DNA of 64,000 bases from Polyangiaceae bacterium (GTDB lineage Bacteria; Myxococcota_A; Polyangia; Polyangiales; Polyangiaceae): assembly GCA_044224495.1 (NCBI GenBank), contig JBGAKG010000005.1:236711-300710 (forward strand), written 5' to 3'. The notes beneath the pieces were generated by a model. That model was not told where the DNA came from and did no database searches. It was given only the letters and a program-made list of their open reading frames with translations. This document shows positions 20,866 to 52,092 of the stretch, piece by piece. The first letter of the stretch is position 1. Each line of letters opens with the position of its first letter. A program made the position numbers and the translations under genes.

Positions 20866-20881
20866 GTGAAGCGAACCTCTG

Positions 20882-20963
20882 TGCGAAGGGCGGGACTTGA
20901 ACCCGCACGGTGTTACCCGCTAGCACCTCAAGCTAGTGCGTCTGCCAATTCCGCCACCTTCGC
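20882..20963 (-). tRNA. tRNA-Leu (anticodon GAG), 82 nt with long variable arm
   Basis: Minus-strand sequence GCGAAGGTGGCGGAATTGGCAGACGCACTAGCTTGAGGTGCTAGCG...GGTTCAAGTCCCGCCCTTCGCA; 7-bp acceptor stem, TPsiC arm GGTTCAAGTCC, anticodon loop CTTGAGG; very similar to E. coli tRNA-Leu. Confidence 0.8.
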
Positions 20964-35663: not shown

Positions 35664-38495
35664 TCAGGCGAGCACTTTCTTCACACTCGGCCGCACCGTC
35701 TTCTTCCGATCGAAGATCCGAAGCCGCCGCACGAGCAAGTCGAGCAGGTACACCGCGATGGCCGCCCCGATGAACCACGACCACAGGTCCTGGTGGTAGG
35801 TGATGGTCTGCCCCGCCGGATCGAAGATCTCTTTGGGGAGCGGATCCATCTTGCCGCCCGTCACGAGCGCCGCCTGCGACAGCGTCTCCTTGTCCGGCGT
35901 GAACGCCAGGTACTCGCGCGGGTACGGGTTCGACACGTGACCGAAGCTCTCGGCGACAGTCGCGCTCTTGAAGCCGCCCTTCCCGTCCTCCACCGCTTTT
36001 TCCAGCGACGCGTGGAGGACGAACGAACCGTAGTGGTCCATCGGGAAGTCGACCTCGTAGCGGCCCGGCGCCGTCTGCTTCATCGAGATCTTCCGCGTCT
36101 CCCCCGCCACACCGTTGGTGCTCGCGGCCTTGATCTCGAGCTTCGCGTCGAGCCCGTTCTGGAACTTGTCGTCGCCGCCGATCGCGTCGATCGATGCCTT
36201 GAGGTGACCCGTCGCCGGGTCGATCTCGGCGCGCATGTCGTACTGCTGGCGCTTCTTCTGGCGCATGTGCTCGCGCACGAGCTGGCCCCAGAACTGCCCG
36301 TAGACGGGCCACTTGAGCCAATCCACCGCCCAGAGGTTCTTCACGTCGCTCGTCCACGCCAGCGACCAGCCGAGGCCGACGTGCCAGCGCGCGAGGATCG
36401 GCTCGCCGATCTCCGACTCCAGGATCTCCTGCGCGGGCGGCGGCTTCATCTTCGTCGCCACGTAGCCGTGCAGGTAGGGTGACGAGCCCATGTCGATGCC
36501 ACGGAGGAAGTCCGCGGGAGCGACGACGCGCGGCTGGAAGTACTCCTCGACCGCCGCGCTGCGGCTGACCATCTCGGTCTCGCGCGTGAACACGCGCGGG
36601 AGCTGGGTCGGGTCGAGCACCTTGTAGAAGCGCCCGCCGCCCAGGTCCGAGATCATGCGGAGCAGGTTCTCGTCGACGCCGCTCCCGAGGCCGACGGTGG
36701 AGACCGTGATGCCCTCCGAGACCATCGCCTGCGTGAGGTCGCGGATGGTGCCCTGCGGCGCCTGCCCGTCCGTGAGGAGGATGACGTGCTTCTTGCGCGC
36801 GCGCGTCACGGTGAGCGACTGGTACGCCGCGTCGAGCGCGGGCTGGATGTCCGTGCCGCCGCCGGGCTGAATGCGCGCGATGTCGCCCTGGATGCGCGCG
36901 CGGTACTTCGCGCTCGTCATCTTCACGACCTTCGTCGGGACGGAGTCGAACGCGATGACCTCGAGCAGGTCCTCGCCATCGAGCGTGTCGGCCGTCGCCT
37001 TGGCGGCGGCCTTCGCCATCTCGAGCGGTTGGCCCGACATCGAGCCGGAGCGGTCGATGACGAGATCCATCGCGACGCCGGGCTCGTCCTTGCGCTTCTC
37101 CGAGTCCATGCGGACCGGCAGGATCCGCTCGATGGTGGAGTTGTACCAACCACCGAGGCCGTAGCCGCTCTCGCCGCCGGCGAACAGGAATCCACCGCCG
37201 AGATCGCGAACGTAGGCTTCGACCGCGTCCTGCTGCGTGAGCGAGACAGCCTCGGCCGGGGCGTCGGACAGGATGACGAAGTCGTAGCGCTCGAGCTCGC
37301 GGATGCTCGACGGGAGCTCGCGCGGGCCGCGCACGTCGACCTCGAGCTCCTGCGCCGAGAGCGCGCTCGCGAGGTAGGTCGCGCGCGCCGGGTTGCCCTC
37401 GACGTAGAGGACGGCCGGCTTCCCGGGCACCGCCGCCGTGACCGCGTAGCGGTTGTTCTCGGGGAAGCGGTCCTCCTTGATGTCGGACAGGTCGAGCTCG
37501 TAGGTGACCTCGCCCGCGACGCGAACGACGCTCTTGAAGGTGACGTCGTTGTCGCCCGCGACGAGGTCGAGCGTGCGCACGCCGTCGAGGCCGTTGATGG
37601 CTTCGCCCTGCTTCAGCACGGCCTTCGCCTGCTGGGCGCGGCTCGAGAAGATGTTCGCGTGGATCTCGAACGGCTCGCCCACGCGGACCTTGTCGGGCAC
37701 GCGCAGCTCGCGGAGAGCGACCTCGCCCGGCACCGGCTTCTTGTAGGGCACCGTGTAGAGCTTCACGCCGAAGTCGTGCGCGCGGTTGGCCTCGGCGAGG
37801 AGGTCACCGTCGGTCTGGACGCCGTCGGAGTAGATGACCGCCCGGCGCAGGTAGCCGGCGGGGTACAGGCCGTACGCCAGCTGGAGCGCGGAGCCGATGT
37901 CGGTCGCCGCGTCCATGCCGCGCTTCTTCCCCGGCGGGAGCGGCTTCTGCGCCTCGTCCGCGGCGAGCACGTCGTGGCGCTTGAGCTCCGGCACCGTGCG
38001 CGTCGTGTCGTCCATCGGGACGACCTGCGGCCGCTGCGAGAACGTGATGACGCGGATCATCGCGTCCTGCGGCTTCTCGTCGAGCGCGTGTTGGATGTCG
38101 GCCCGAGCGTCCTCGATCGCGGCGTCGGGGACCGACTCCGAGACGTCGACGACGTAGACCGTACATATCTTCTGCGTCGTCGCCGTTCGCGCCAGGCGCG
38201 AGAGACCGAGCGCGACCAACGCGACGAAGACGACGCGGAGGAACACCGAGATCACGCGCTGCGGCCACGGCAGGTCCGCGAGCGAGCGCCCGATGACCCA
38301 GAGGAAGTAGGGCGCGAGCAGCGCGATGCCGAGCATGCGCGGCGCGAGCAGCTCGTAGTCCTTGTCGCCGTGCTTCCACGCGAGTGTGGGGCCCGCGTAC
38401 CAGACGTACTTGGTGTAGGCCCAGAGCCCAATCGCGCCGACCGTCAGGATCAGCGCGCCCCAAGCGATGCGTTTCCAGAGCTTCGTCTCGGGCAT
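35664..38495 (-). CDS. double vWA-domain membrane protein (Bat-like operon, large subunit)
   Basis: 943 aa; N-terminal TM helices, two vWA/MIDAS regions (DVSESV.., DRSGSMSG..), C-terminal TM. Confidence 0.75.
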   Translation of the reverse strand: MPETKLWKRIAWGALILTVGAIGLWAYTKYVWYAGPTLAWKHGDKDYELLAPRMLGIALLAPYFLWVIGRSLADLPWPQRVISVFLRVVFVALVALGLSRLARTATTQKICTVYVVDVSESVPDAAIEDARADIQHALDEKPQDAMIRVITFSQRPQVVPMDDTTRTVPELKRHDVLAADEAQKPLPPGKKRGMDAATDIGSALQLAYGLYPAGYLRRAVIYSDGVQTDGDLLAEANRAHDFGVKLYTVPYKKPVPGEVALRELRVPDKVRVGEPFEIHANIFSSRAQQAKAVLKQGEAINGLDGVRTLDLVAGDNDVTFKSVVRVAGEVTYELDLSDIKEDRFPENNRYAVTAAVPGKPAVLYVEGNPARATYLASALSAQELEVDVRGPRELPSSIRELERYDFVILSDAPAEAVSLTQQDAVEAYVRDLGGGFLFAGGESGYGLGGWYNSTIERILPVRMDSEKRKDEPGVAMDLVIDRSGSMSGQPLEMAKAAAKATADTLDGEDLLEVIAFDSVPTKVVKMTSAKYRARIQGDIARIQPGGGTDIQPALDAAYQSLTVTRARKKHVILLTDGQAPQGTIRDLTQAMVSEGITVSTVGLGSGVDENLLRMISDLGGGRFYKVLDPTQLPRVFTRETEMVSRSAAVEEYFQPRVVAPADFLRGIDMGSSPYLHGYVATKMKPPPAQEILESEIGEPILARWHVGLGWSLAWTSDVKNLWAVDWLKWPVYGQFWGQLVREHMRQKKRQQYDMRAEIDPATGHLKASIDAIGGDDKFQNGLDAKLEIKAASTNGVAGETRKISMKQTAPGRYEVDFPMDHYGSFVLHASLEKAVEDGKGGFKSATVAESFGHVSNPYPREYLAFTPDKETLSQAALVTGGKMDPLPKEIFDPAGQTITYHQDLWSWFIGAAIAVYLLDLLVRRLRIFDRKKTVRPSVKKVLA

Positions 38496-38498
38496 GGG

Positions 38499-40481
38499 CT
38501 AGACCGTGATCCTTCGGTGGTAGGTGGCCCACTCGACGACGGTGATGAGGATGACGGCGAGCAAGAGGTAGATCCAGACCTCCCGCCGCACGCCGACGTG
38601 GAAGCCTTCGACCGGCGTCGCGTCCTTGCCGTCCACGGTGAGCTTCTCCGCGGGAGCGATCGCGCTCTCGCCGTCGTCGAGGAGGTTCGCCGCGAAGCGG
38701 AGCGAGCTCCCGGCTTGGGTGAGCGCGGCGTCCCCCGTCGGCTCGCCCGGACTCGCACTGGCGACCGGTGCGGGCGGGGCTACCCCCTCGCTCGTCGGTG
38801 CGCCGGTCGGCAACGTCAGATCGTAGAAGCCCGCCCGCTGCCCGAGGAACACGGCGCGCCCTTCGTGCACGGGGATCGGCTGCTTCGCTCCGGCCGGCGT
38901 GGTGAGGGTCGCCGCGGTGGTCTGCGAGCCGACCGGGATGCGCCAAACGTCACCGGTGCGGAAGGACGAGATGTAGCTCGTGTCCTCGTCCGTGAACCAG
39001 TTGACGATGTTGAGGAGGAGCACCGGCCACGCGACGCGAAGCGGGAGGTCGCTGTCGCGGACGTCGAAGCCCATCGCGACGAACTTCTGCCCGTTGCGCA
39101 CGCCGCTCACGAGGAGCGGGCCGTCGAACGACGCGCCGATGACCTTGTCCTGCGGCTCGGGCTTCAGCTTGTGGCCGCTCCCGATGTTGACCTGGTCGAG
39201 CGCGGTGAAGCGCACGATCGGGTGCTTGCGCTCGATTTTGTCGAAGCCGGGCGACTCGATCGCGCCTTCGACCTTCACCGGCGACCCGGGGCCGCGCGGG
39301 TCGAGGTACAGCGCCGCCGCTTTGGGCATCTGCGCCGGCGTGACCTGATCGAAGATGACGACGTCGAACTTCACCTGGCCCGCGGCGTACTTGTTCGCGT
39401 AGTCCGCCGGCGTCGCGTTGACGACATCGAGGTACTCGTCGAGCAGGAGCGCCGCATCGAGGTAGTTGTTCCCGAGCGAGACGACGAGCACCTTCGCGCG
39501 GCGCCGCTCGGGCAGGAGCGCGTAGGCGTGGTCGTCGGCGGGGAGATCGTCTTTCGTGTCGCCGATCGGACCGAGCTTCGCCTCGAGCGTCCGGCTCGCG
39601 CCGGAGAGGTTCGGGTAGAAGCGCGGGAGCTTCTCGCCCGGCTGCAAGCGGAGCTTCGTCAGATCGACGAGCATCCCGTCGCCGAGGAGCGAGAGCTCGA
39701 TGTCGGCGACCTCGGTCCCGGTGTTGGTGACCTCGAGCATCACCTCGTAGCGGCTCTTGTCGAGCGGGTACCTTCGGACCGAGAACTGCGTGATCGCGAC
39801 GTTGTCCTTCGCCTTGCCGATTGGCAGGTACGAGAGCTTCGCGTCGCCGAGGTGCACGGCGCCGGCCGCGTCGGTCGCTTCGCCGAGATCGCCGTCGGAC
39901 ACGACGACGATCTCGCCGTTGTCGACGTTCTTGAGCGTGTCGGTCGCGAAGCGCAGCGCGCGCGGGAAGTCGGCGCGGGCGTCGGTCGGCTGCACGGAGT
40001 CCACCGCGCGCTCGAGCTCCGACGTGTCCCCGCTCATCGGTCCGAGCGGCGTGATCGCGGCGTCCATCTGGGCGACGAGCATGCGGTCCGCACCGCCCAT
40101 GCCGCGGATGAGCGCCTTGACCTCGTCCTTCGCGTGATCGAGGCGGGTCGGCGTGACGTCGGTCGCCTGCATCGAGGCGCTCGCGTCGATGATCACGACG
40201 ACGTTGCGGCCCTTGATCAGGGTGGCGGCAGCGCGCGGATCCCCGAGCGCGAGGCAGAGCAGCGCGAGGAGCGCGAGCTGGAGAAGCAAGGAGAGGAGGC
40301 GCTTGAGCTTCGAGAAGAGGCTCGTCGCCTCTTTGTCGCGGAGGATCTTCTGCCAGAGCGGCGAGAACGGCACCGCGACGACGCGACGCCGGAGCTTCAG
40401 GATGTAGAGCCCGATCATCGCGGCGCCGATGACGCCGAAGATGCCCGCGAGCTGCGCGAACGAGAGGCCGGCGAGGATCAA
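38499..40481 (-). CDS. BatA-like vWA domain membrane protein
   Basis: 660 aa; N-terminal TM pair, vWA MIDAS 'DASASM', C-terminal TM anchor. Confidence 0.75.
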   Translation of the reverse strand: MILAGLSFAQLAGIFGVIGAAMIGLYILKLRRRVVAVPFSPLWQKILRDKEATSLFSKLKRLLSLLLQLALLALLCLALGDPRAAATLIKGRNVVVIIDASASMQATDVTPTRLDHAKDEVKALIRGMGGADRMLVAQMDAAITPLGPMSGDTSELERAVDSVQPTDARADFPRALRFATDTLKNVDNGEIVVVSDGDLGEATDAAGAVHLGDAKLSYLPIGKAKDNVAITQFSVRRYPLDKSRYEVMLEVTNTGTEVADIELSLLGDGMLVDLTKLRLQPGEKLPRFYPNLSGASRTLEAKLGPIGDTKDDLPADDHAYALLPERRRAKVLVVSLGNNYLDAALLLDEYLDVVNATPADYANKYAAGQVKFDVVIFDQVTPAQMPKAAALYLDPRGPGSPVKVEGAIESPGFDKIERKHPIVRFTALDQVNIGSGHKLKPEPQDKVIGASFDGPLLVSGVRNGQKFVAMGFDVRDSDLPLRVAWPVLLLNIVNWFTDEDTSYISSFRTGDVWRIPVGSQTTAATLTTPAGAKQPIPVHEGRAVFLGQRAGFYDLTLPTGAPTSEGVAPPAPVASASPGEPTGDAALTQAGSSLRFAANLLDDGESAIAPAEKLTVDGKDATPVEGFHVGVRREVWIYLLLAVILITVVEWATYHRRITV

Positions 40482-41399
40482 CGGAGGAACCCTCCGCGGC
40501 GGAAGACGCGCAGGATGAGCTCGTCGAAGGGCACCGTCACGTCGGCCTGGATGTACGGCACCATGCGCGACGTGCAGAACTTCTCCACGTCCTTCAAGTA
40601 GGTCCCGTAGACCTCTTCGAAGCGCTCGAGCACCTTCGCCGTGATCGTGACCTCGCGCTCGTCACCCGTCTCGCAGTCGTAGAGCAGGATGTCGCCGGCG
40701 AGCTTGGGCTTCGCCTCGCGCTTGTCGGTGACGTGGATCACGAAGGGGTCGAACTTGTTGTAGCGGAGGACGTTGATGCCCTTCTCGAAGCCCTTCGGAT
40801 CGTAGAGATCGCTGATGAGCACGACCATGCCGCGGCGCTTGTGGCGCGCGACGAAGGACTTGAGCGCGTCCTCGAGATCGGTGATGCCCTGCGGCTCCAC
40901 CGTGCGGAGGAACCGGAACACCTTGAAGATGCGCGCCTTGCCGCGCGTCTCCGGCATGCGCCCCATCATCTGATCGCTGGTGGAGACGATGCAGACGCGA
41001 TCGAGGTTCGCGAGGCCCACGTAGCCGAGCGCAGCCGCGAGGCGCTTCGCGTGACGGAGCTTCTCCCCGTCGCCGAAGGCCATCGAGCCCGACGCGTCGA
41101 CGACGAAGTAGATGGCGAGGTCCTCTTCTTCCTCGAACAGGCGAAGCAGGAGGCGACCGAACTTCTGGTAGACGTTCCAGTCGAGGTAACGGAAGTCGTC
41201 GCCCGGCTGGTAGTCGCGGTGGTCGGCGAACTCGATGCCGCTACCGGTCTTCTTCGTGCGGCGCTCCGCGCGCATGCGCCCGGCGAAGACCTTGCGACTG
41301 ACCATCGCGAGGTAGTCGAGCTTGCGCTGGAAGTCGTCGTCGAAGAGGTCGTCGCTTTCCTTCGCTACGGCGCTCTTCTTCGCGCCTCCGGTTAGGAAA

Positions 41400-41422
<23 letters not shown>
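40478..41422 (-). CDS. DUF58 domain protein (MoxR partner)
   Basis: 314 aa; DUF58 signature region 'IEFADHRDYQPGDDFRYLDW', vWA-like 'VVDASGSM'; ORF start overlaps MoxR stop by 23 nt so real start may be internal. Confidence 0.8.
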
Positions 41423-42464
<1,042 letters not shown>

Positions 42465-42501
42465 CGTCTCCTCGCTTCGTTGTTCTCTGGACTCGTCTCG
42501 G

Positions 42502-44763
42502 TCACTGCTGGTCGCGCGGGCGAATCAGCTGGAAGTACCGCTTCACGTAGAAACGATACCCGCCGGGGATCTCGTCCTTGTTGAGCGCTTCTTCCGCGAC
42601 CGTGTGGTACTCGCGATAAACGTTCTGGTAGCCGCGCGACGCGAAGCCGCGCTCGGCCGCACCCTGGATCACCTGGCTACGACTGCCGCCTTGGCCCGTG
42701 TCCTGGCCGGCGATCTGCGTGTCCTGCGTGCCGTACTTGATGCCGGACTGCTGGCCCTTCGGATCGCCGCCGGAGCCGGTGCCCCAGCCCGGACCTTGCT
42801 GGCCGCCTTGGCCGCCCTGTCCGCCTTGGCCGCCCTGTCCGCCTTGGCCCTGTCCGCCTTGGCCCTGGCCCTTCGTGATGACGAGGATCTTCTCGCCGTT
42901 GGGGCCCATGACCCAAACCTCGCCGGGCCCGGGCCCAGGCTGCTGCCCACCAGCGCCGCCCATGCCCCCTTGCCCTTGCCCTTGCCCTTGCCCTTGCCCT
43001 TGCCCTTGTCCTTGCCCTTGCCCCTGCCCGTTCTGCCCCTGCTGGCCCTGACCCTGGCCCTGGCCCTGCTGGCCCTGCCCGTTCTGGCCCTGACCCTGGC
43101 CCTGCTGCCCTTGGCCCTGCTGCCCCTGACCCTGCTGACCCTGACCCTGCTGACCCTGGCCCTGGCCCTGCTGACCTTGACCCTGCTGCCCTTGGCCCTG
43201 CTGGCCCTGACCCTGCTGCCCTTGGCCCTGCTGACCCTGGCCCTGCTGCCCTTGGCCCTGCTGCCCGCCTTGGCCGTGCGCCTGCTGCTGGAACCGCTGG
43301 AGCCGGGCCATCTGCTGCTGGCCGCCCTGACCTTGCTGGCGGAGCATCTCGCGCAGCTCGTCGAGCTTCTGCTTCAGCTCTTCTTTCTCCTGCTGCGTCA
43401 TCTCCTGCTGCTGCATCTGGTGCAGGTCCTGAGCACCGTTCTCCAGATCCTGCGCGGAGAGCCCGAGATCCTTCATCAGGTCCTCGGCCGCTTTCTGGAG
43501 ATCCTGATCGAGCTTGTCGAGCTGGCGCTGCGTCGCGTCCGCTTGCTGGAGCTCGTGCTCGAGCCGATCGAGCTCGCGCTCCTTCTTCTCGAGCAGGCTG
43601 CGCTCTTCGTCGGTCTGGGGACCGGCGTCGCCCTGCTTCTGCTTCAACAGCGAGAGGTCCTGCTTCGCCTGATCGCGCGCCTTCTCGACCGCTTCCTTGT
43701 GGGCGGCCGCGTCCTGCGAAGCCTGCTTCAGCGCTTCGCGGAGCTTCTCGAGCTGCGCCTTGTCGATCTGGCCGCCGTTCTGACGGAGCTTCTGCGCGAG
43801 GTCGCGGAGGTTCTTCTCGGCGTCGGTCAGGTTGTGCTGACTCATCGAGTCGCCGGCCGGCCGTGACATGTCGCTCTTCTTGAGCGCGTCACCCATCTTC
43901 TCGAGCTGCTCGTCGAGCTGCTTGTGATCGACGTCGCGACCCTGCTGGAGCTTCTCCTCGAGCGCTTGCATGCGCCGGAACGCTTCGGTGCGATCCAAGC
44001 GCTTCGCGGCGAGGTCCTCGATGAGCTGGTTGAACTCGCGCGTCGCTTCCTTCGCGTCGTCGCTCTGGTTCTTCTGCTCTTGCTGCTTGAGGAAGTCGCG
44101 CATCGCATCGAGGTCGTCCGCGGTGACGTCGACCGGATCGATCGTCTTCTGCGAGATGGCGGGCTTGTGCTCGCGGACCTCGAACAGCGCGACCGCGGTC
44201 ACGGCGAGACCGAGCACGGCCGCCATCGCGAGATCGCGCGGCGCCTTGACGGGGACGGCCTTGCGCGGCTCGACGGTGTGCACGACGGCGAGCGCGTCGT
44301 CGATCGCAGCGTCCATGAAGGCGCTGCGCTCTTTCTCCTCCGAGAACGTGAGCGCGCTCGACAGGCGATCGTGGAGACCGTGGTGGCGGTCGAGGGTGAT
44401 CGCGCCCGCGCGCTGCGGGAGGCGACGCATCCAGCCGGCCGACGCGATCGCGAGGACCGCGGCGCCCTCGGCCACGAGCAGCGCCTTGGTCGCCTTGTCG
44501 CCGAGGTGATCGGTCTTGCGGAGCGCGAGCGTGATGCCCGCCGCGCCGAGGCCCACGCACAGCGCGGTGGTCCCCCATGCGAGCGCGCGAACGAAGCGCA
44601 TGCGGCGCTCGGTCCGCCCGGCCGCGTTCGCGATCGCCTCGATCGTCCCGCGCTTGCGCGGCGGGGGCTCGGCAGGAGCCGCCTGGGCCGGAGGCGGCTC
44701 CGGCGCTTGCGTCGTCTCGTTTTGGGCGGTGTCGGACTTCGGGTCGTCGTGCGCGTCGCTCAT
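42502..44763 (-). CDS. membrane-anchored coiled-coil protein with ~200-aa Gly/Gln low-complexity (GQ)n domain, hypothetical
   Basis: 753 aa; 3 N-terminal TM segments, ~250-aa E/K/Q/L-rich coiled coil, then (GQ/GQQ)n tract, short folded C-terminus (..GYRFYVKRYFQLIRP); GC3-rich, first gene of the MoxR/vWA operon. Confidence 0.65.
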   Translation of the reverse strand: MSDAHDDPKSDTAQNETTQAPEPPPAQAAPAEPPPRKRGTIEAIANAAGRTERRMRFVRALAWGTTALCVGLGAAGITLALRKTDHLGDKATKALLVAEGAAVLAIASAGWMRRLPQRAGAITLDRHHGLHDRLSSALTFSEEKERSAFMDAAIDDALAVVHTVEPRKAVPVKAPRDLAMAAVLGLAVTAVALFEVREHKPAISQKTIDPVDVTADDLDAMRDFLKQQEQKNQSDDAKEATREFNQLIEDLAAKRLDRTEAFRRMQALEEKLQQGRDVDHKQLDEQLEKMGDALKKSDMSRPAGDSMSQHNLTDAEKNLRDLAQKLRQNGGQIDKAQLEKLREALKQASQDAAAHKEAVEKARDQAKQDLSLLKQKQGDAGPQTDEERSLLEKKERELDRLEHELQQADATQRQLDKLDQDLQKAAEDLMKDLGLSAQDLENGAQDLHQMQQQEMTQQEKEELKQKLDELREMLRQQGQGGQQQMARLQRFQQQAHGQGGQQGQGQQGQGQQGQGQQGQGQQGQGQQGQGQQGQGQGQQGQGQQGQGQQGQGQQGQGQGQNGQGQQGQGQGQGQQGQNGQGQGQGQGQGQGQGQGQGQGGMGGAGGQQPGPGPGEVWVMGPNGEKILVITKGQGQGGQGQGGQGGQGGQGGQGGQQGPGWGTGSGGDPKGQQSGIKYGTQDTQIAGQDTGQGGSRSQVIQGAAERGFASRGYQNVYREYHTVAEEALNKDEIPGGYRFYVKRYFQLIRPRDQQ
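42790..43290. repeat. in-frame tandem repeat tract: (CCCTTG)n hexanucleotide run (~42967-43025) plus degenerate 15-nt CTGCTGCCCTTGGCC-type repeats, encoding (GQ)n
   Basis: Directly visible microsatellite-like periodicity on the plus strand; all units multiples of 3. Confidence 0.8.
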
Positions 44764-44843: not shown

Positions 44844-45569
44844 GTGAAAGCGGTGGTGCAACGCAGGCCGGCCGAAGGAGATTCCGGAGATTCCACGCGT
44901 GGTACGCTGCCGCGCGTGAGCGTCACCTCGAAGCTGCCGGACCCGCCCCCCATCGTGCTGCAGCAGACGCGGGAGGACTCGGCTCCCGCCCCGCGCGGCG
45001 GCTTCTTGGAGCTCCGCCGCGTCGAGTTGGTGGCTCATTATCCGGATGGAACGCAGAGCGCACCGTTCCCTTACGACATGATTCAGCGGCGCGCCTTGGA
45101 TGCCGCGATCGTGGTTGCGCACTTCGTGGGTGAAGGTGGGCGCAACGTCATCCTGCGCTCGTGCGTCCGCCCCGCGGTGGCAGCCCGTCCCACCGATCCC
45201 AAGCACGACGCCCTGCTCTGGGAGCTCCCCGCCGGGCTCATCGAGCCGGGCGAGGCGCCCCGCGCGGCCGCGGCGCGCGAGCTCTACGAGGAGATCGGCG
45301 CGAAGGTGACCCCCGAGGCGCTCCACGATCTCGGGCCGTGGATGTTCCCGGTTCCGGCGATGATCGCCGAGGTCCACGCCTATTTTCATGTGGAGATCGA
45401 TCCGCGGGAGCTGCACGTGCCTCCGGGAGATGCCTCCCCACTGGAGTACGGCGCCGCGCTCGTCACCCTTCCCCTGCGCGATGCGCTCGCCTACTGCCAG
45501 GCGGGTCGAATCCGAGACCTCAAGACGGAGCTCGGTCTTCGTCGCCTGCGCGACGCCGTGGGCGAGTGA
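44844..45569 (+). CDS. NUDIX hydrolase
   Basis: 241 aa; Nudix box 'GLIEPGEAPRAAAARELYEEIG'. Confidence 0.75.
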   Translation: MKAVVQRRPAEGDSGDSTRGTLPRVSVTSKLPDPPPIVLQQTREDSAPAPRGGFLELRRVELVAHYPDGTQSAPFPYDMIQRRALDAAIVVAHFVGEGGRNVILRSCVRPAVAARPTDPKHDALLWELPAGLIEPGEAPRAAAARELYEEIGAKVTPEALHDLGPWMFPVPAMIAEVHAYFHVEIDPRELHVPPGDASPLEYGAALVTLPLRDALAYCQAGRIRDLKTELGLRRLRDAVGE

Positions 45570-48994: not shown

Positions 48995-49964
48995 GGCCGA
49001 GCCGCCGCTCGGGCGGCTCCGACGCGCGACCGTCGGCGCGCTCGCGGGTGCCGCCATGCTCGTGGTCGGCGCCGCCGACGCGCACGCGTTCTGCCGCACC
49101 ATGTCGAGCAAGATGTCGCCCGACTTCACGCCGTCGGCGGAGCGCCCGTGCTGGGACCAAGGCGTTCCGCTCTACTGGGCGAACCGCTGCGTCGGCTACA
49201 GCCTCCAGCGCGATGCGAGCCGCCAGATCTCGTACGACGACGTGACCAACTCCCTGACCGCCGCGTTCACGCGCTGGGCCTCCGTGAGCTGTCCCACCGA
49301 GGAGGGCTCCGCCCAGGTCAGCATCGACATCCGCTTCCTCGGGCCGGTCGAGTGTTCGCGTGTACAATACAACTCCGATCCGGCGGTCGGAAACGCGAAC
49401 GTCGTCATGTTCCGCGACGACGTGTGGCCGCACAACGACGCGAACAACACGCTCGGCCTCACGACCGTCAGCTACAACCCCAAGACCGGTGAGCTGTACG
49501 ACGCGGACATGGAGATCAACTCCGCGAACGTGAAGCTCGTCGCGCGCGATCCGGTCCCGCCCGACGGCTACGACTTCGCGAGCATCGTGACCCACGAGGC
49601 AGGCCACTTCCTCGGGATGGCCCACTCGCCCGACACCCACGCGACGATGTACGCGAGCTACCGCCAAGGCTCGACGACGCTGCGCTATCTCGCGGCGGAC
49701 GACGTCGACGGGATCTGCACCGCCTACCCGCCCGACGGCACGCGCGGCACCGCCGCCGGCCGCGTGCCCGCCCCCGCGTGCGATCCGACGCCGCGCCACG
49801 GCTACGCGTCGGAGTGCATCCCCTCGCCCACGTCGACCAAGAGCTGCAGCGCGTCCGGCGCCGGTGAAGAGGGCCCGAGCGACCGCGCCGCGCTGTTCGT
49901 CTTCGCGCCGCTCGCGATCGCGCTCGGCCGCCGCATCGCGCGGAGGGGCGCGCCGCGCGCATGA
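48984..49964 (+). CDS. matrixin-like zinc metalloprotease, secreted (HEAGHFLGMAHS)
   Basis: ATG 48984 (ORF opens 48927) giving signal peptide RRATVGALAGAAMLVVGAADAHA; HExxHxxGxxH zinc site; C-terminal Cys then Gly/Ala-rich hydrophobic tail and basic end. Confidence 0.7.
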   Translation: MRAEAEPPLGRLRRATVGALAGAAMLVVGAADAHAFCRTMSSKMSPDFTPSAERPCWDQGVPLYWANRCVGYSLQRDASRQISYDDVTNSLTAAFTRWASVSCPTEEGSAQVSIDIRFLGPVECSRVQYNSDPAVGNANVVMFRDDVWPHNDANNTLGLTTVSYNPKTGELYDADMEINSANVKLVARDPVPPDGYDFASIVTHEAGHFLGMAHSPDTHATMYASYRQGSTTLRYLAADDVDGICTAYPPDGTRGTAAGRVPAPACDPTPRHGYASECIPSPTSTKSCSASGAGEEGPSDRAALFVFAPLAIALGRRIARRGAPRA

Positions 49965-50890
49965 AGCACGCCTCTCTCTGGCTCCGGGGCACCGCTGCGC
50001 TCGCGGTGCTCGCGGCGGCGAGCGCCCCGCGGACCGCCGAAGCGTTCTGCCGCACGACCACGATCCAGAAGCCGGCGTCGTTCAGCGAGGTCGTCCAGCA
50101 GCAGTGCTTCACCGACGGCAAGCCCCTCTGGTGGGCCGGTCGCTGCGTGGGCTACAGCCTCAACGCGAGCGGCTCGAAGAAGCTCGGCTTCGCGGACATC
50201 GAGAACACGCTCAAGAGCTCGGTCGCGACGTGGTCGTCCGTCTCGTGCCCGACCGCCGGGGGCTCGGGGCAGGTCAGCATCGATCTCCGCTACCTCGGTC
50301 CCGCGTCGTGCGACAAGGTCGCCTTCAGCGGCGACGGCGGCAACGTGAACGTCGTCGTGTTCCGCGACGACTCGTGGCCCGCGGACCAGGACCCCGAGCA
50401 CGTCATCGCGCTCACGACGGTCCAGTACAACACGACCACCGGCGAGCTCCGCGGTTGGGACATGGAGCTCAACACCGCCAACCAGAACATCACCCTGGAC
50501 GGCGCGGGGAACAGCATCGCGCTCTCCGGCGTGCTCACGCACGAGACCGGTCACGTCCTTGGCTTCGCGCACAGCACCGACAAGACGGCGACGATGTACG
50601 AGAAGTACAACTCGACGATCGGCACGCTGAAGCAGGACGACATCGACGCGATCTGCACCGTCTATCCACCGGACGGAACGCGGCCCACCGCCGACGGAAC
50701 GCGCACCGCGCTCGCGTGCGATCCCACGCCCCCGCGCGGGTACGAGCCCGACTGCGCGGCGAGCTCGGGCGGCTGCTCGTGCGACGCCGCCGGCGGCGGC
50801 GGTGCCCCGGGCGCGCTCGGTCTCGCGGCGTTCGGTGCGGTCGGCCTCGCGGTGGTGCGCCGGACGCGGCGCCGAAGGACTGGGGGATGA
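49961..50890 (+). CDS. matrixin-like zinc metalloprotease paralog with MYXO-CTERM-like sorting tail (HETGHVLGFAHS)
   Basis: ATG overlaps upstream paralog stop (ATGA); signal peptide; C-terminus 'GCSCDAAGGGGAPGALGLAAFGAVGLAVVRRTRRRR' = Cys + Gly-rich + TM + Arg cluster. Confidence 0.7.
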   Translation: MKHASLWLRGTAALAVLAAASAPRTAEAFCRTTTIQKPASFSEVVQQQCFTDGKPLWWAGRCVGYSLNASGSKKLGFADIENTLKSSVATWSSVSCPTAGGSGQVSIDLRYLGPASCDKVAFSGDGGNVNVVVFRDDSWPADQDPEHVIALTTVQYNTTTGELRGWDMELNTANQNITLDGAGNSIALSGVLTHETGHVLGFAHSTDKTATMYEKYNSTIGTLKQDDIDAICTVYPPDGTRPTADGTRTALACDPTPPRGYEPDCAASSGGCSCDAAGGGGAPGALGLAAFGAVGLAVVRRTRRRRTGG

Positions 50891-52092
50891 GCTCCGCGAG
50901 CCTCGTCGTGGTCGCGGGCGAAGCGTCCGGCGACCGCGCCGCCGCTGCCGTCGTGGCGGAGCTCCACCGCGAGAGCCCCGAGCTCGCCTGCTTCGGGATC
51001 GGCGGACCGGCGTGCGCCGCGGCGGGCGTGCGCTTCGTCGCCGACGCACCCTTCGGGGCGGCCGGCTTCTTCCCCGTGCTGCGGCGCGCCGCTTCCGTGG
51101 TTCGAAGCTTCCGCGCGATCGTGGCCGCGGCGCGCGCGGAGCGCCCGGCCGCCGCGTTGCTGGTGGATTGGACGGAGTTCAACCAGCGCCTCGCCCCCGA
51201 GCTCCGCGCGCTCGGGACGAAGGTCCTCTGGTACGGCGCCCCGCAAGTGTGGGCGTGGCGCGCCTCGCGCCTCCGGACCCTCGCGCCCCGCGTCGACGCG
51301 ATGGCGGTCGTCCTTCCGTTCGAGGAAGCGCTCTGGCGGAGCGCCGGCGCCGACGCGACGTACGTCGGGCATCCGTCCCTGCGCCCGCTCCCCGAGCCGC
51401 CCGCGCGCGTCGAGCTCCGGCGCGCCCTCGGGCTCGCTCCGGGGCGCGCGCTCGCGCTCCTGCCCGGCAGTCGTCCCGCCGAGGTACGAGCCCTCCTCGA
51501 GCCGATGCTCGACGCTGCGGTGCGGCTCCGGCGCGAGCTCCTGGCGGTCGAGCCGCGCCTGGTCCTCGCGCCCGGCCTCCCGGTCGAGCTCGCGGCGTGG
51601 GCGCGGGGTGCCGGATCGGCGGCAGGCGTCCCCGTGCTCGCCGCGTCCCCCGACGGCGCGAGCGAGCTCCTCCCGGCGTTCGACGGCGCGCTCGTCGCAT
51701 CGGGGACCGCGTCGCTCGAGGCAGCGCTCGCCGGCGCGCATCCGGTCGTCGCGTACCGGACCGACCGCGCCACCGCGGCGTTGCTCGGGCTCCTCGTCCG
51801 AACGCCCTGGATTGCGCTCCCGAACGTGATCCTGGGGCGCGGCGAGTGGCCCGAGCTCCTGCAGAACGACGCCTCCGGTCCCCGGATGGCGGCCGAGATG
51901 CGGAAAGTTCTCGAACGCCGCGCGCGCTTGGACGATGCTGCGCGCGAGCTTCGCGAATGTCTCGGAGAGGAAAGAAACCCAAGAAGTCTGGTCGCAGCGC
52001 GCCTGCGCGCGTGGCTTCCGAGCGGAAGCCGACCGGAGCCGCAACGCCCACGGCGACCCGCCCCAAGTTCGACAACCTCTTCCTCGCCCTGA
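50887..52092 (+). CDS. lpxB: lipid-A-disaccharide synthase
   Basis: 401 aa from ATG 50887 (ATGA overlap with protease stop); 'VVAGEASGD' N-terminal motif and GT-B fold pattern; last ~45 codons overlap next gene and look atypical. Confidence 0.7.
   Translation: MSSASLVVVAGEASGDRAAAAVVAELHRESPELACFGIGGPACAAAGVRFVADAPFGAAGFFPVLRRAASVVRSFRAIVAAARAERPAAALLVDWTEFNQRLAPELRALGTKVLWYGAPQVWAWRASRLRTLAPRVDAMAVVLPFEEALWRSAGADATYVGHPSLRPLPEPPARVELRRALGLAPGRALALLPGSRPAEVRALLEPMLDAAVRLRRELLAVEPRLVLAPGLPVELAAWARGAGSAAGVPVLAASPDGASELLPAFDGALVASGTASLEAALAGAHPVVAYRTDRATAALLGLLVRTPWIALPNVILGRGEWPELLQNDASGPRMAAEMRKVLERRARLDDAARELRECLGEERNPRSLVAARLRAWLPSGSRPEPQRPRRPAPSSTTSSSP

Follow-up and report, generated by a model that had tools for sequence, protein, structure and literature searches.

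Why does a membrane protein that heads a set of MoxR, DUF58 and VWA genes carry long runs of Gly and Gln, and what might it do there? MoxR-DUF58-VWA ('Bat') gene sets are widespread, and mutations in them alter envelope integrity, stress tolerance and virulence; the literature searched gives no mechanism for these systems and leaves their function unsettled. A particular puzzle is that their ATPase is cytoplasmic, whereas the BatA-type VWA domains face the periplasm. In the window, by which we mean the whole 64-kb stretch of DNA analysed, a preliminary description had proposed a real gene for a membrane-anchored, helical protein at the head of a MoxR-DUF58-VWA-VWA operon, and both proposals held. 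The gene and its operon partners are as follows.

42502..44763, minus strand: whole gene of the 753-aa family member (ORF list and translation), stop codon at 42502-42504
42465..42501, minus strand: 37-nt spacer preceding the start codon of MoxR, with GGAG (intergenic reading)
41400..42464, minus strand: MoxR-type AAA+ ATPase (Pfam AAA_3, E 1e-63, and AAA_lid_2)
40478..41422, minus strand: DUF58 protein, VWA-like (Pfam DUF58, E 3e-39)
38499..40481, minus strand: 660-aa protein with a BatA N-terminal double-TM domain and VWA (Pfam BatA and VWA_2)
35664..38495, minus strand: 943-aa VWA and GATase1-like membrane protein (Pfam VWA, E 7e-30, and GATase1_like)

The 753-aa ORF starts with ATG, and its GC content at codon position 3 (0.87) is near that of the four downstream genes (0.90-0.95); this value, the conservation of the family and the operon position all agree with a real gene. 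An antisense ORF of 565 aa (42169..43866, plus strand) was discarded as the mirror image of the repeat. The MoxR gene follows closely, after 37 nt, and we detected no terminator-like site on the minus strand. The DUF58 gene comes directly after MoxR and overlaps its end. Upstream, the neighbour is a divergent NUDIX gene, and a promoter scan gave no match. The operon thus contains the core of a Bat-like set, that is, a MoxR protein with AAA_3, DUF58, BatA-N with VWA, and a second VWA protein.

Homology searches at E <= 1e-3 retrieved 567 proteins, all labelled hypothetical, with E < 1e-181 for the top 120. At least 438 species genomes encode relatives. The 80 best of these are all from Polyangia, a group of soil bacteria, and the number of clusters at 50% identity rose from 438 (E <= 1e-30) to 1505 (E <= 1e-10) and 3439 (E <= 1e-3). 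In every Polyangia locus on a long enough contig, the family gene is followed by MoxR, DUF58, BatA-VWA and VWA2. The 753-aa protein is a member of a real, conserved family whose gene is tied to the MoxR-DUF58-VWA set. Annotations such as 'CheA' or 'endoglucanase' have been given to some family members, and the family merits a model of its own that would end these labels.

The protein combines three hydrophobic helices, a region of long helices covering about 280 aa, and two Gly/Gln tracts encoded by tandem repeats. Outside the tracts, its parts are the following.

44659..44763, minus strand: residues 1-35, variable Pro/Ala-rich N-terminal tail, predicted cytoplasmic (alignments; pLDDT <50)
44170..44658, minus strand: residues 36-198, conserved membrane domain (hydropathy, AlphaFold2, hhalign to the Planctomycetota family)
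44521-44586, minus strand: TM1, residues 60-81 (hydropathy, AlphaFold2 helix)
44428-44493, minus strand: TM2, residues 91-112 (hydropathy, AlphaFold2 helix)
44239-44427, minus strand: loop domain, residues 113-175, with conserved 'AGAxxLDRxHGLxDRLSSALxF' (alignment)
44170-44238, minus strand: TM3, residues 176-198 (hydropathy, AlphaFold2 helix)
43279..44121, minus strand: residues 215-495, helical stalk of 37-45-residue helices, E/K/Q/D/L (AlphaFold2 pLDDT 70-90)
42868..42924, minus strand: residues 614-632, conserved island 'GExWVxGPNGEKILxxxxG', a small beta hairpin between spacers (alignment)
42505..42792, minus strand: residues 658-753, conserved C-terminal region (alignments; pLDDT 75-80)

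The three TM helices announced earlier were recovered by both hydropathy and AlphaFold2: all are helical in the full model (pLDDT >94), and the membrane domain modelled alone reached a pLDDT of 92 and a pTM of 0.80. The tail that precedes them is unconserved in alignments A1 and A2. The loop carries the motif 'LDRxxxLxDRLSSAL', with invariant columns at L124, D125, A137 and F140. As for the long E/K/Q coiled coil of the preliminary description, the helical region 215-495 stands, but the likeness to SMC and apolipophorin is coiled-coil noise. SMC_prok_B scored 14 bits, the cut-off being 567, and ApoLp-III appeared only at E 0.024, in one distant family member. The stalk includes many invariant alignment columns and, being conserved in sequence, is no generic coiled coil. 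Against PDB structures it gave generic helical matches only, and a Foldseek search of the full model against the PDB yielded a best E of 0.07, all matches being long-helix proteins. In the island, strands were modelled at residues 618-627 with low confidence. The C-terminal region is the most conserved block of the family; its three-helix core (residues 695-747, 42523-42681) is rich in Tyr, Phe and Arg and terminates in 'IPGGYRFYVKRYFQLIRPR'. The 753-aa protein has the ending 'IPxxYxxxVxxYFxxL/I', as do nearly all full-length members among the 150 representatives listed.

The charge distribution and the models suggest that the N-terminus is cytoplasmic, that TM1 and TM2 form a hairpin, that the conserved loop probably faces the cytoplasm, and that TM3 would lead the remaining ~555 aa into the periplasm. 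The sum of K and R is 7.2 in the N-terminal tail (~25 aa) and 9.0 in loop 2, whereas the segment after TM3 is net acidic (D+E 10.4 vs K+R 4.7); the protein has no signal peptide. On this charge distribution, the Gly/Gln tract would be periplasmic. The opposite arrangement, a reversed or largely cytoplasmic protein acting as a membrane-anchored coiled-coil scaffold and direct target of MoxR and DUF58, draws on the fact that these two proteins have no predicted TM segments, so that a cytoplasmic substrate would be the simplest, and on the conserved pair R82-K83 in loop 1, which the topology model places in the periplasm. However, in a protein with three TM segments the C-terminus can be cytoplasmic only if the N-terminus is exported, and the charge of the tail and the lack of a signal peptide make this export unfavourable; the acidic segment after TM3 also argues against it. 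We consider this arrangement unlikely.

The family extends beyond Polyangia. An unannotated family of ~554 aa from Planctomycetota (Phycisphaerales/Sedimentisphaerales; P0341-P0460) is homologous at both ends: the N-terminal domain with three TM segments and loop aligned at 99.7% in hhalign (E 3.5e-26; alignment A2 vs A5), and the C-terminal 'IPxxYxxxVxxYF' domain at 91% (E 9e-7). The parts follow the same order as in the 753-aa protein, but the G-rich spacer of the Planctomycetota family is short and without Gln repeats. In three of the four Planctomycetota contigs examined, the homologue lies beside VWA/GATase1-like, MoxR, DUF58 and BatA-VWA genes; SBP-like, BPD_transp/NHL and VWA genes stand between it and MoxR, whereas the 753-aa gene directly precedes MoxR. 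The exception is the Phycisphaerales locus L084, near which, as near the remote relative P0340 (L081), no MoxR gene was found.

Searches against Pfam and NCBIfam returned no match beyond coiled-coil noise for the window protein, for 24 members (E <= 10), or for 10 distant and 3 remote members (E <= 1). This result bears on a possible very distant membership in DUF4175/TIGR02302. These alphaproteobacterial proteins have two or three N-terminal TM helices and extracytoplasmic low complexity rich in Gln and Gly. This description fits the architecture of the 753-aa protein, the likeness being architectural only. Against this, neither the window protein nor 36 other members matched the PF13779/TIGR02302 HMMs at E up to 1-10, assuming that both models are among those searched. 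In addition, a tblastn search with the tract-free protein found no match in 72,556 plasmid and chromid records, including Sinorhizobium, Paracoccus and Azospirillum replicons, and neither a DUF4175 gene nor a homologue of the 753-aa protein adjoins the two alphaproteobacterial MoxR operons inspected, located on chromids, so that a supposed linkage of DUF4175 to such operons was not confirmed. The phylum is also different, and such a membership seems improbable.

The Gly/Gln region itself comprises these features.

42964..43275, minus strand: Gly/Gln tract 1, residues 497-600, (GQGQQ)n then (GQ)n (codon table, TRF arrays, pLDDT ~33)
42967..43029, minus strand: near-perfect hexamer run, CAAGGG on the coding strand, 7 perfect copies (TRF, codon table)
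42793..42870, minus strand: Gly/Gln tract 2, residues 632-657, (GQG/GGQ)n (codon table; TRF period 9/18 at 42799-42867)

The TRF arrays confirmed that hexanucleotide and 15-mer tandem repeats encode this region: besides (CCCTTG) x10.5 at 42967-43029 (period 6, 94% matches), there is a 15-mer array at 43033-43266 and one of period 9/18 at 42799-42867. No other tandem repeat in the whole window reaches a score of 80, so these arrays are not due to chance. The domain of ~200 residues of (GQ)n described earlier holds only for the whole G/Q-rich zone (~476-692), which is interrupted by the conserved, non-repetitive island GEVWVMGPNGEKILVITKG; the pure tracts measure 104 aa, including two Asn, and 26 aa. 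Together they have 2 non-G/Q residues in 130 despite many synonymous codon variants, no aromatic or aliphatic residue, and a predicted disordered state (AlphaFold2 pLDDT ~33). CAA accounts for 20 of the 66 Gln codons within the tract and for 7 of 66 outside. The CAAGGG run is the most slippage-prone stretch. The hexamer runs of other lineages use different codon pairs (CAAGGC, GGCCAG, CAGGGT), and the codon comparison indicates that perfect runs arose separately in different lineages.

Among 158 homologues, the spacer between two conserved anchors had a median length of 68.5 aa and ranged from 31 aa to the 124 aa of this window, the longest; part of this spread may be technical, since metagenome assemblies can collapse repeats. 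Across the family its composition is 41% G and 36% Q, and distant members, lacking G/Q runs, keep a G-rich spacer (G/E/D/K/S-rich). The Gly/Gln run is the longest version seen of a floppy, variable-length spacer found throughout the family, so that calling it unusual was an overstatement; G-rich spacers of variable length are usual in this family, which is known from at least 438 species genomes. A rapid, in-frame change in repeat number had also been anticipated, and it was borne out: spacer lengths are 11-33 aa apart in homologues that share 94-98% identity outside the tract, the difference reaching 33 aa between proteins that are 97.6% identical elsewhere, and the tract of the closest orthologue (85.6% identity) differs solely through in-frame indels.

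The tract had also been likened to a prion or hydrogel, that is, a self-association domain building a gel or condensate needed by the system. Its high Q content and long low-complexity stretch fit this idea, and the recurrence of G/Q richness across many Polyangiaceae suggests some selection on composition. However, Tyr, Phe and Asn-rich 'sticker' residues are absent from the 130 residues apart from two Asn, and alternating Gly interrupts the polyQ. Moreover, neither length nor sequence is conserved, even between near-identical proteins, the G/E/D/K/S spacers of distant members replace the tract, and its predicted disorder and probable periplasmic location also speak against self-association. 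This comparison lends the idea no support, and we give it a low probability.

The same repeats could instead form a contingency locus, in which rapid changes serve as adaptive switches (phase or antigenic variation) rather than as drift in a loosely constrained spacer. The seven perfect CAAGGG copies and the length differences between very close relatives would be expected from such a locus. Nevertheless, the units of 6, 9 or 15 nt lie entirely inside the ORF and are all multiples of 3 nt, so slippage alters length but cannot shift the frame or turn the gene on or off. Most tracts are codon-heterogeneous, a perfect run of >=30 nt occurring in only 5 of 81 loci, and surface exposure of the protein is not predicted. 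We regard an adaptive switch as very improbable. Finally, an assembly expansion or collapse, conceivable because repeats resist assembly and short-read MAGs supply many of the homologues, is scarcely credible given the unbroken reading frame across the tract, the 110-aa spacer of the independent close relative L001, and spacers of 70-110 aa in several other genomes, among them the complete genome of a cultured strain. High-quality assemblies do retain long spacers: that of Labilithrix luteola DSM 27648 measures 70 aa, and another of 89 aa lies on a 9.9-Mb chromosome.

Taken together, we favor, with a probability of roughly 0.6, the view that the 753-aa protein is an inner-membrane protein and the first subunit in a Bat-like MoxR-DUF58-VWA envelope system of five genes, with the Gly/Gln spacer as a flexible tether. 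Its conserved helical loop of ~65 aa would face the cytoplasm, where MoxR and DUF58 lie. On the periplasmic side, the helical stalk would be followed by the disordered, uncharged Gly/Gln spacer with its one small conserved hairpin, and then by the three-helix C-terminal domain. The tether may bring this domain to a partner away from the inner membrane, the candidates being the periplasmic VWA domains, peptidoglycan and the outer membrane. The length of the spacer would be loosely constrained: in-frame replication slippage on the 6-, 9- and 15-nt units may lengthen and shorten it, while selection would keep it flexible and hydrophilic. In this respect, the tract offers a clear natural example of spacer length drifting through in-frame slippage.

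A more ambitious proposal, which we put forward tentatively and consider doubtful, is that the family is the missing transmembrane coupler of Bat-like systems. The loop would serve as docking site for the MoxR hexamer and/or DUF58, remodelling powered by ATP would be relayed by the three-TM domain to the periplasmic stalk, and the C-terminal domain, on its evolvable Gly/Gln tether, would contact the VWA (MIDAS) domains of the periplasm, the wall or the outer membrane. If true, it would explain how a cytoplasmic MoxR ATPase acts on periplasmic VWA proteins. With a probably cytoplasmic conserved loop and a long predicted periplasmic reach, and being found beside MoxR/VWA genes in two phyla, the family represents a concrete candidate link between the compartments.

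Bat-like MoxR-DUF58-VWA operons include BatI of Bacteroides fragilis, the bat genes of Leptospira and bb0170-0176 of Borrelia; RL3499-RL3502 of Rhizobium leguminosarum is reportedly another. Their core is the same as the four genes downstream of the 753-aa gene. The MoxR operons of S. meliloti and Paracoccus likewise have four genes in this order, the third encoding DUF4159. None of the five operon genes of the window encodes the TPR, BatD or SH3 domains of the BatC/BatD/BatE type that mark the Bacteroides/spirochaete form. As had been supposed, a partner like the 753-aa protein was absent from the described Bat-like operons inspected, including these two alphaproteobacterial ones. The 753-aa protein appears from its gene context to be an extra subunit of the Bat-like set, found in this analysis in Polyangia and Planctomycetota. 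The BatA-type VWA domain of Borrelia BB0173 faces the periplasm (PMC5700661).

The arrangement of the parts recalls tethers of the FtsN/TonB type, which likewise run from an inner-membrane anchor through a short helical part in the periplasm and a long, unstructured low-complexity linker to a small binding domain at the C-terminus. The linker of FtsN is Gln-rich and that of TonB is Pro-rich. The C-terminal domain of the 753-aa protein is a three-helix unit and not a SPOR or TonB-C domain, and its anchor has three TM segments with a conserved, probably cytoplasmic loop, whereas these tethers have one TM segment. The likeness concerns how such a protein would work, and not sequence or fold; in FtsN, the domains follow one another as anchor, helical part, linker and C-terminal domain (PMC9525312).

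The gene at 42502..44763 (-) is an open reading frame of 753 codons with an ATG start, and its GC3 (0.87) is near that of the four co-directional downstream genes (0.90-0.95), which were assigned by Pfam. The MoxR gene starts 37 nt past its stop, preceded by GGAG, and no terminator-like site was found on the minus strand. Together with the large conserved family to which its product belongs, these data confirm the preliminary description in that the gene is real and heads a MoxR-DUF58-VWA-VWA operon.

The operon and nearby features
42502..44763 (-): 753-aa protein
First downstream gene (-): MoxR (Pfam AAA_3, E 1e-63)
Second downstream gene (-): DUF58 protein (Pfam, E 3e-39)
Third downstream gene (-): BatA-N + VWA protein (BatA-VWA; Pfam)
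Fourth downstream gene (-): VWA + GATase1-like protein (VWA2; Pfam)
44844-45569 (+): NUDIX hydrolase gene, divergent, 80 nt upstream of the 753-aa ORF
49864-52092 (+): LpxB-domain gene, ~5 kb from the operon
20881-20963 (-): tRNA-Leu(GAG), the sole tRNA gene in the window
42169-43866 (+): Leu/Pro/Ala-rich 565-aa ORF, antisense to the stretch that encodes the G/Q repeats and helices, rejected as a gene

A NUDIX homologue was detected upstream by tblastn in about half of 80 Polyangia loci, often immediately adjacent. The Paracoccus MoxR operon abuts fabZ-lpxA-lpxI-lpxB directly (L089, 18808-22215); lpx genes near the operon in both the window and Paracoccus may reflect an envelope-biogenesis neighbourhood, or coincidence.

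No Pfam or NCBIfam model matched the 753-aa protein except for noise-level hits to SMC and Rad50, caused by coiled-coil composition. A search carried out with the G/Q tracts masked retrieved 567 proteins from Polyangiaceae, Labilithrix and other Myxococcales, all labelled 'hypothetical'; the best 120 had E < 1e-181 and were 460-718 aa long. When one genome per species was scanned, relatives were found in 438 species, of which the best 80 were Polyangia only, including the cultured Labilithrix luteola DSM 27648 and MAGs of Sorangium and Nannocystis. The closest relative is a Polyangiaceae MAG (locus L001), whose orthologue is 85.6% identical to the window protein. Using the five window proteins in tblastn, we observed the order family gene, MoxR, DUF58, BatA-VWA, VWA2 in every sufficiently long locus among these best 80. 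An exhaustive profile search of 1.84 billion representatives yielded 438 clusters with an E-value cut-off of 1e-30, a number that rose to 1505 with a cut-off of 1e-10 and to 3439 with 1e-3; the named matches among the representatives listed were Kofleriaceae, Haliangiales or 'Myxococcales', and almost all full-length proteins among the 150 listed end in '...IPxGYRFYVRRYFQLIRPRE'. These results show that the family gene is real, conserved and in fixed linkage with the MoxR/DUF58/VWA genes. Four homologous proteins (P0204, P0256, P0282, P0032) are mislabelled at source as 'chemotaxis protein histidine kinase CheA' (JGI) or 'Endoglucanase' (NCBI), probably due to low-complexity or coiled-coil regions. 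In four loci from long-contig MAGs (L032, L037, L048, L064), several operon genes out of the five gave broken-up tblastn matches, and two of these loci have no intact ORF; assembly indel errors are a more likely cause than real pseudogenes.

A profile built from the most divergent Polyangia sequences gave three weak matches (E 1e-17 to 1e-19), whose relatives form a ~554-aa family in Planctomycetota (Phycisphaerales, Sedimentisphaerales), all hypothetical and with no Pfam domains. In profile-profile comparisons, the N-terminal domain and part of the stalk matched this family with 99.7% probability (E 3.5e-26, 373 columns), and the C-terminal 50 residues with 91% (E 9e-7). In three of four Planctomycetota contigs inspected, the homologue is followed by SBP-like, BPD_transp/NHL, VWA/GATase1-like, MoxR, DUF58 and BatA-VWA genes; the MoxR/DUF58/VWA cluster was not seen on the fourth (L084, Phycisphaerales), and no MoxR was found near one further remote relative. 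Overall, in two phyla this protein architecture is linked with the MoxR/DUF58/VWA genes. The intervening SBP-like gene and 805-847-aa BPD_transp_1/NHL protein (L085 11662-15326, L086 11668-15206, L087 11741-15282) hint at a transporter-like module in the Planctomycetota version.

The anatomy of the protein was drawn from alignments of 24 and 119 members and from an AlphaFold2 model, which agree on its parts.

Parts of the 753-aa protein
N-tail: variable
Residues ~36-198: membrane domain, three TM helices (pLDDT >94 in the full model)
Loop TM2-TM3 (loop 2): 65 aa, helical, near-invariant 'AGAxxLDRxHGLxDRLSSALxF'
Residues 215-495: stalk, helices of 37-45 residues, conserved in sequence
First spacer: disordered (pLDDT ~33)
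Hairpin: small, conserved 'GExWVxGPNGEKIL', between the spacers
Second spacer: short, after the hairpin
C-terminal domain: three-helix, conserved

Hydropathy places the three helices, as proposed previously, at residues 60-81, 91-112 and 176-198, and the membrane domain modelled by itself reached pLDDT 92 and pTM 0.80. The SMC-like coiled coil of the preliminary description survives as a conserved helical stalk; the likeness to SMC proteins does not. Over 119 sequences, K+R averaged 7.2 in the N-tail (~25 residues) and 9.0 in loop 2, and the 42 residues after TM3 contained 10.4 D+E versus 4.7 K+R. According to the positive-inside rule, this distribution suggests a cytoplasmic N-terminus and loop 2 and a periplasmic location for residues ~199-753 (N-in/C-out), a predicted topology whose weak point is the conserved pair R82-K83 in the short turn between TM1 and TM2. 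Such a periplasmic placement would agree with experiments on Borrelia BB0173, whose BatA-type VWA domain was shown to face the periplasm (PMC5700661). Residues 664-665 (42769-42774) are Ser-Gly in the window and His-Asp in at least 90% of 119 homologues (motif 'GWGTGHDxxVQG'); the L001 orthologue keeps His-Asp, and the flanking residues differ as well.

The hexanucleotide and 15-mer repeats reported previously were recovered by Tandem Repeats Finder, and no others scoring >=80 were found elsewhere in the 64-kb window.

Repeats within the gene
42967-43029: period-6 array, CCCTTG x10.5, 94% matches
43033-43266: period-15/30/66 arrays
42799-42867: period-9/18 array
Residues 497-600: G/Q tract 1, (GQGQQ)n then (GQ)n, 104 residues
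Residues 632-657: G/Q tract 2, (GQG/GGQ)n, 26 residues

The '~200-residue (GQ)n domain' thus corresponds to a wider G/Q-rich zone, which encloses both tracts and a conserved non-repetitive island. GC3 falls to 0.75 inside the tract because CAA, GGT and GGA codons are used (CAA encodes 20/66 Gln in the tract versus 7/66 elsewhere). Since four Gly and two Gln codons occur and all but 2 of the 130 tract residues are G or Q, what is maintained is the composition and not the DNA sequence; the terminal perfect (CAAGGG)7 run looks recent. Perfect runs in other lineages use different codon pairs (CAAGGC, GGCCAG, CAGGGT), and runs of at least 30 nt occur in only 5/81 loci.

Measured between two conserved anchors in 158 homologues, spacer length ranged from 31 to 124 aa (median 68.5), the window having the longest; pooled composition was G 41%, Q 36%, then E, A, S, R, K, D, N. 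Length varies in frame, as anticipated: two proteins that share 97.6% identity apart from the tract have spacers of 60 and 93 aa, the difference is 11-17 aa in further pairs with 94-96% identity, and the tracts of the window and L001 differ by in-frame indels only. More distant members (Kofleriaceae, Haliangiales, others) retain a G-rich spacer, but their G/Q runs are often just 2-6 residues. The data show a disordered, length-variable spacer between conserved end domains. The repeats are unlikely to be a contingency locus, as in-frame units cannot switch expression. A prion- or hydrogel-like domain, as previously suggested, is also improbable, given the absence of sticker residues and of conservation in the tract. 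An assembly artefact is ruled out by spacers of 70 aa in a cultured strain's complete genome and 89 aa in a 9.9-Mb single-chromosome assembly, although some of the length variation seen in short-read MAGs may be artefactual.

The G/Q repeat is an expanded linker, and the most striking feature of the gene is ordinary. Of greater interest is that Polyangia and Planctomycetota have in common a family of unannotated subunits of Bat-like MoxR-VWA systems. Of the three membrane subunits, only this one would have a conserved cytoplasmic segment of appreciable size, loop 2, which would make that loop the natural contact for MoxR/DUF58; the spacer could serve as a flexible tether that carries no charge, and a periplasmic or envelope partner might be bound by the C-terminal domain.

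The four downstream genes are counterparts of the core of Bat-like operons. The operon of Sinorhizobium meliloti and Paracoccus comprises MoxR, DUF58, BatA-N/DUF4159 and VWA/GATase1-like genes, and nothing homologous to the 753-aa protein lies next to it. In the S. meliloti record (L088, 16681-18749), the fourth gene is split into ORFs of 197 and 492 aa and is missing from the feature table; this strain probably has a frameshift or a pseudogene here. TIGR02302/DUF4175 covers proteins of Alphaproteobacteria that have 2-3 TM helices near the N-terminus and low-complexity sequence rich in Gln/Gly; membership was not backed by any HMM match, and tblastn against plasmid and chromid records, alphaproteobacterial replicons included, gave no match to the 753-aa protein. 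In working layout, the protein is similar to periplasmic tethers such as FtsN (domain order in PMC9525312) and TonB, in which a membrane anchor is combined with short helices, a long linker of low complexity and a small domain for binding.
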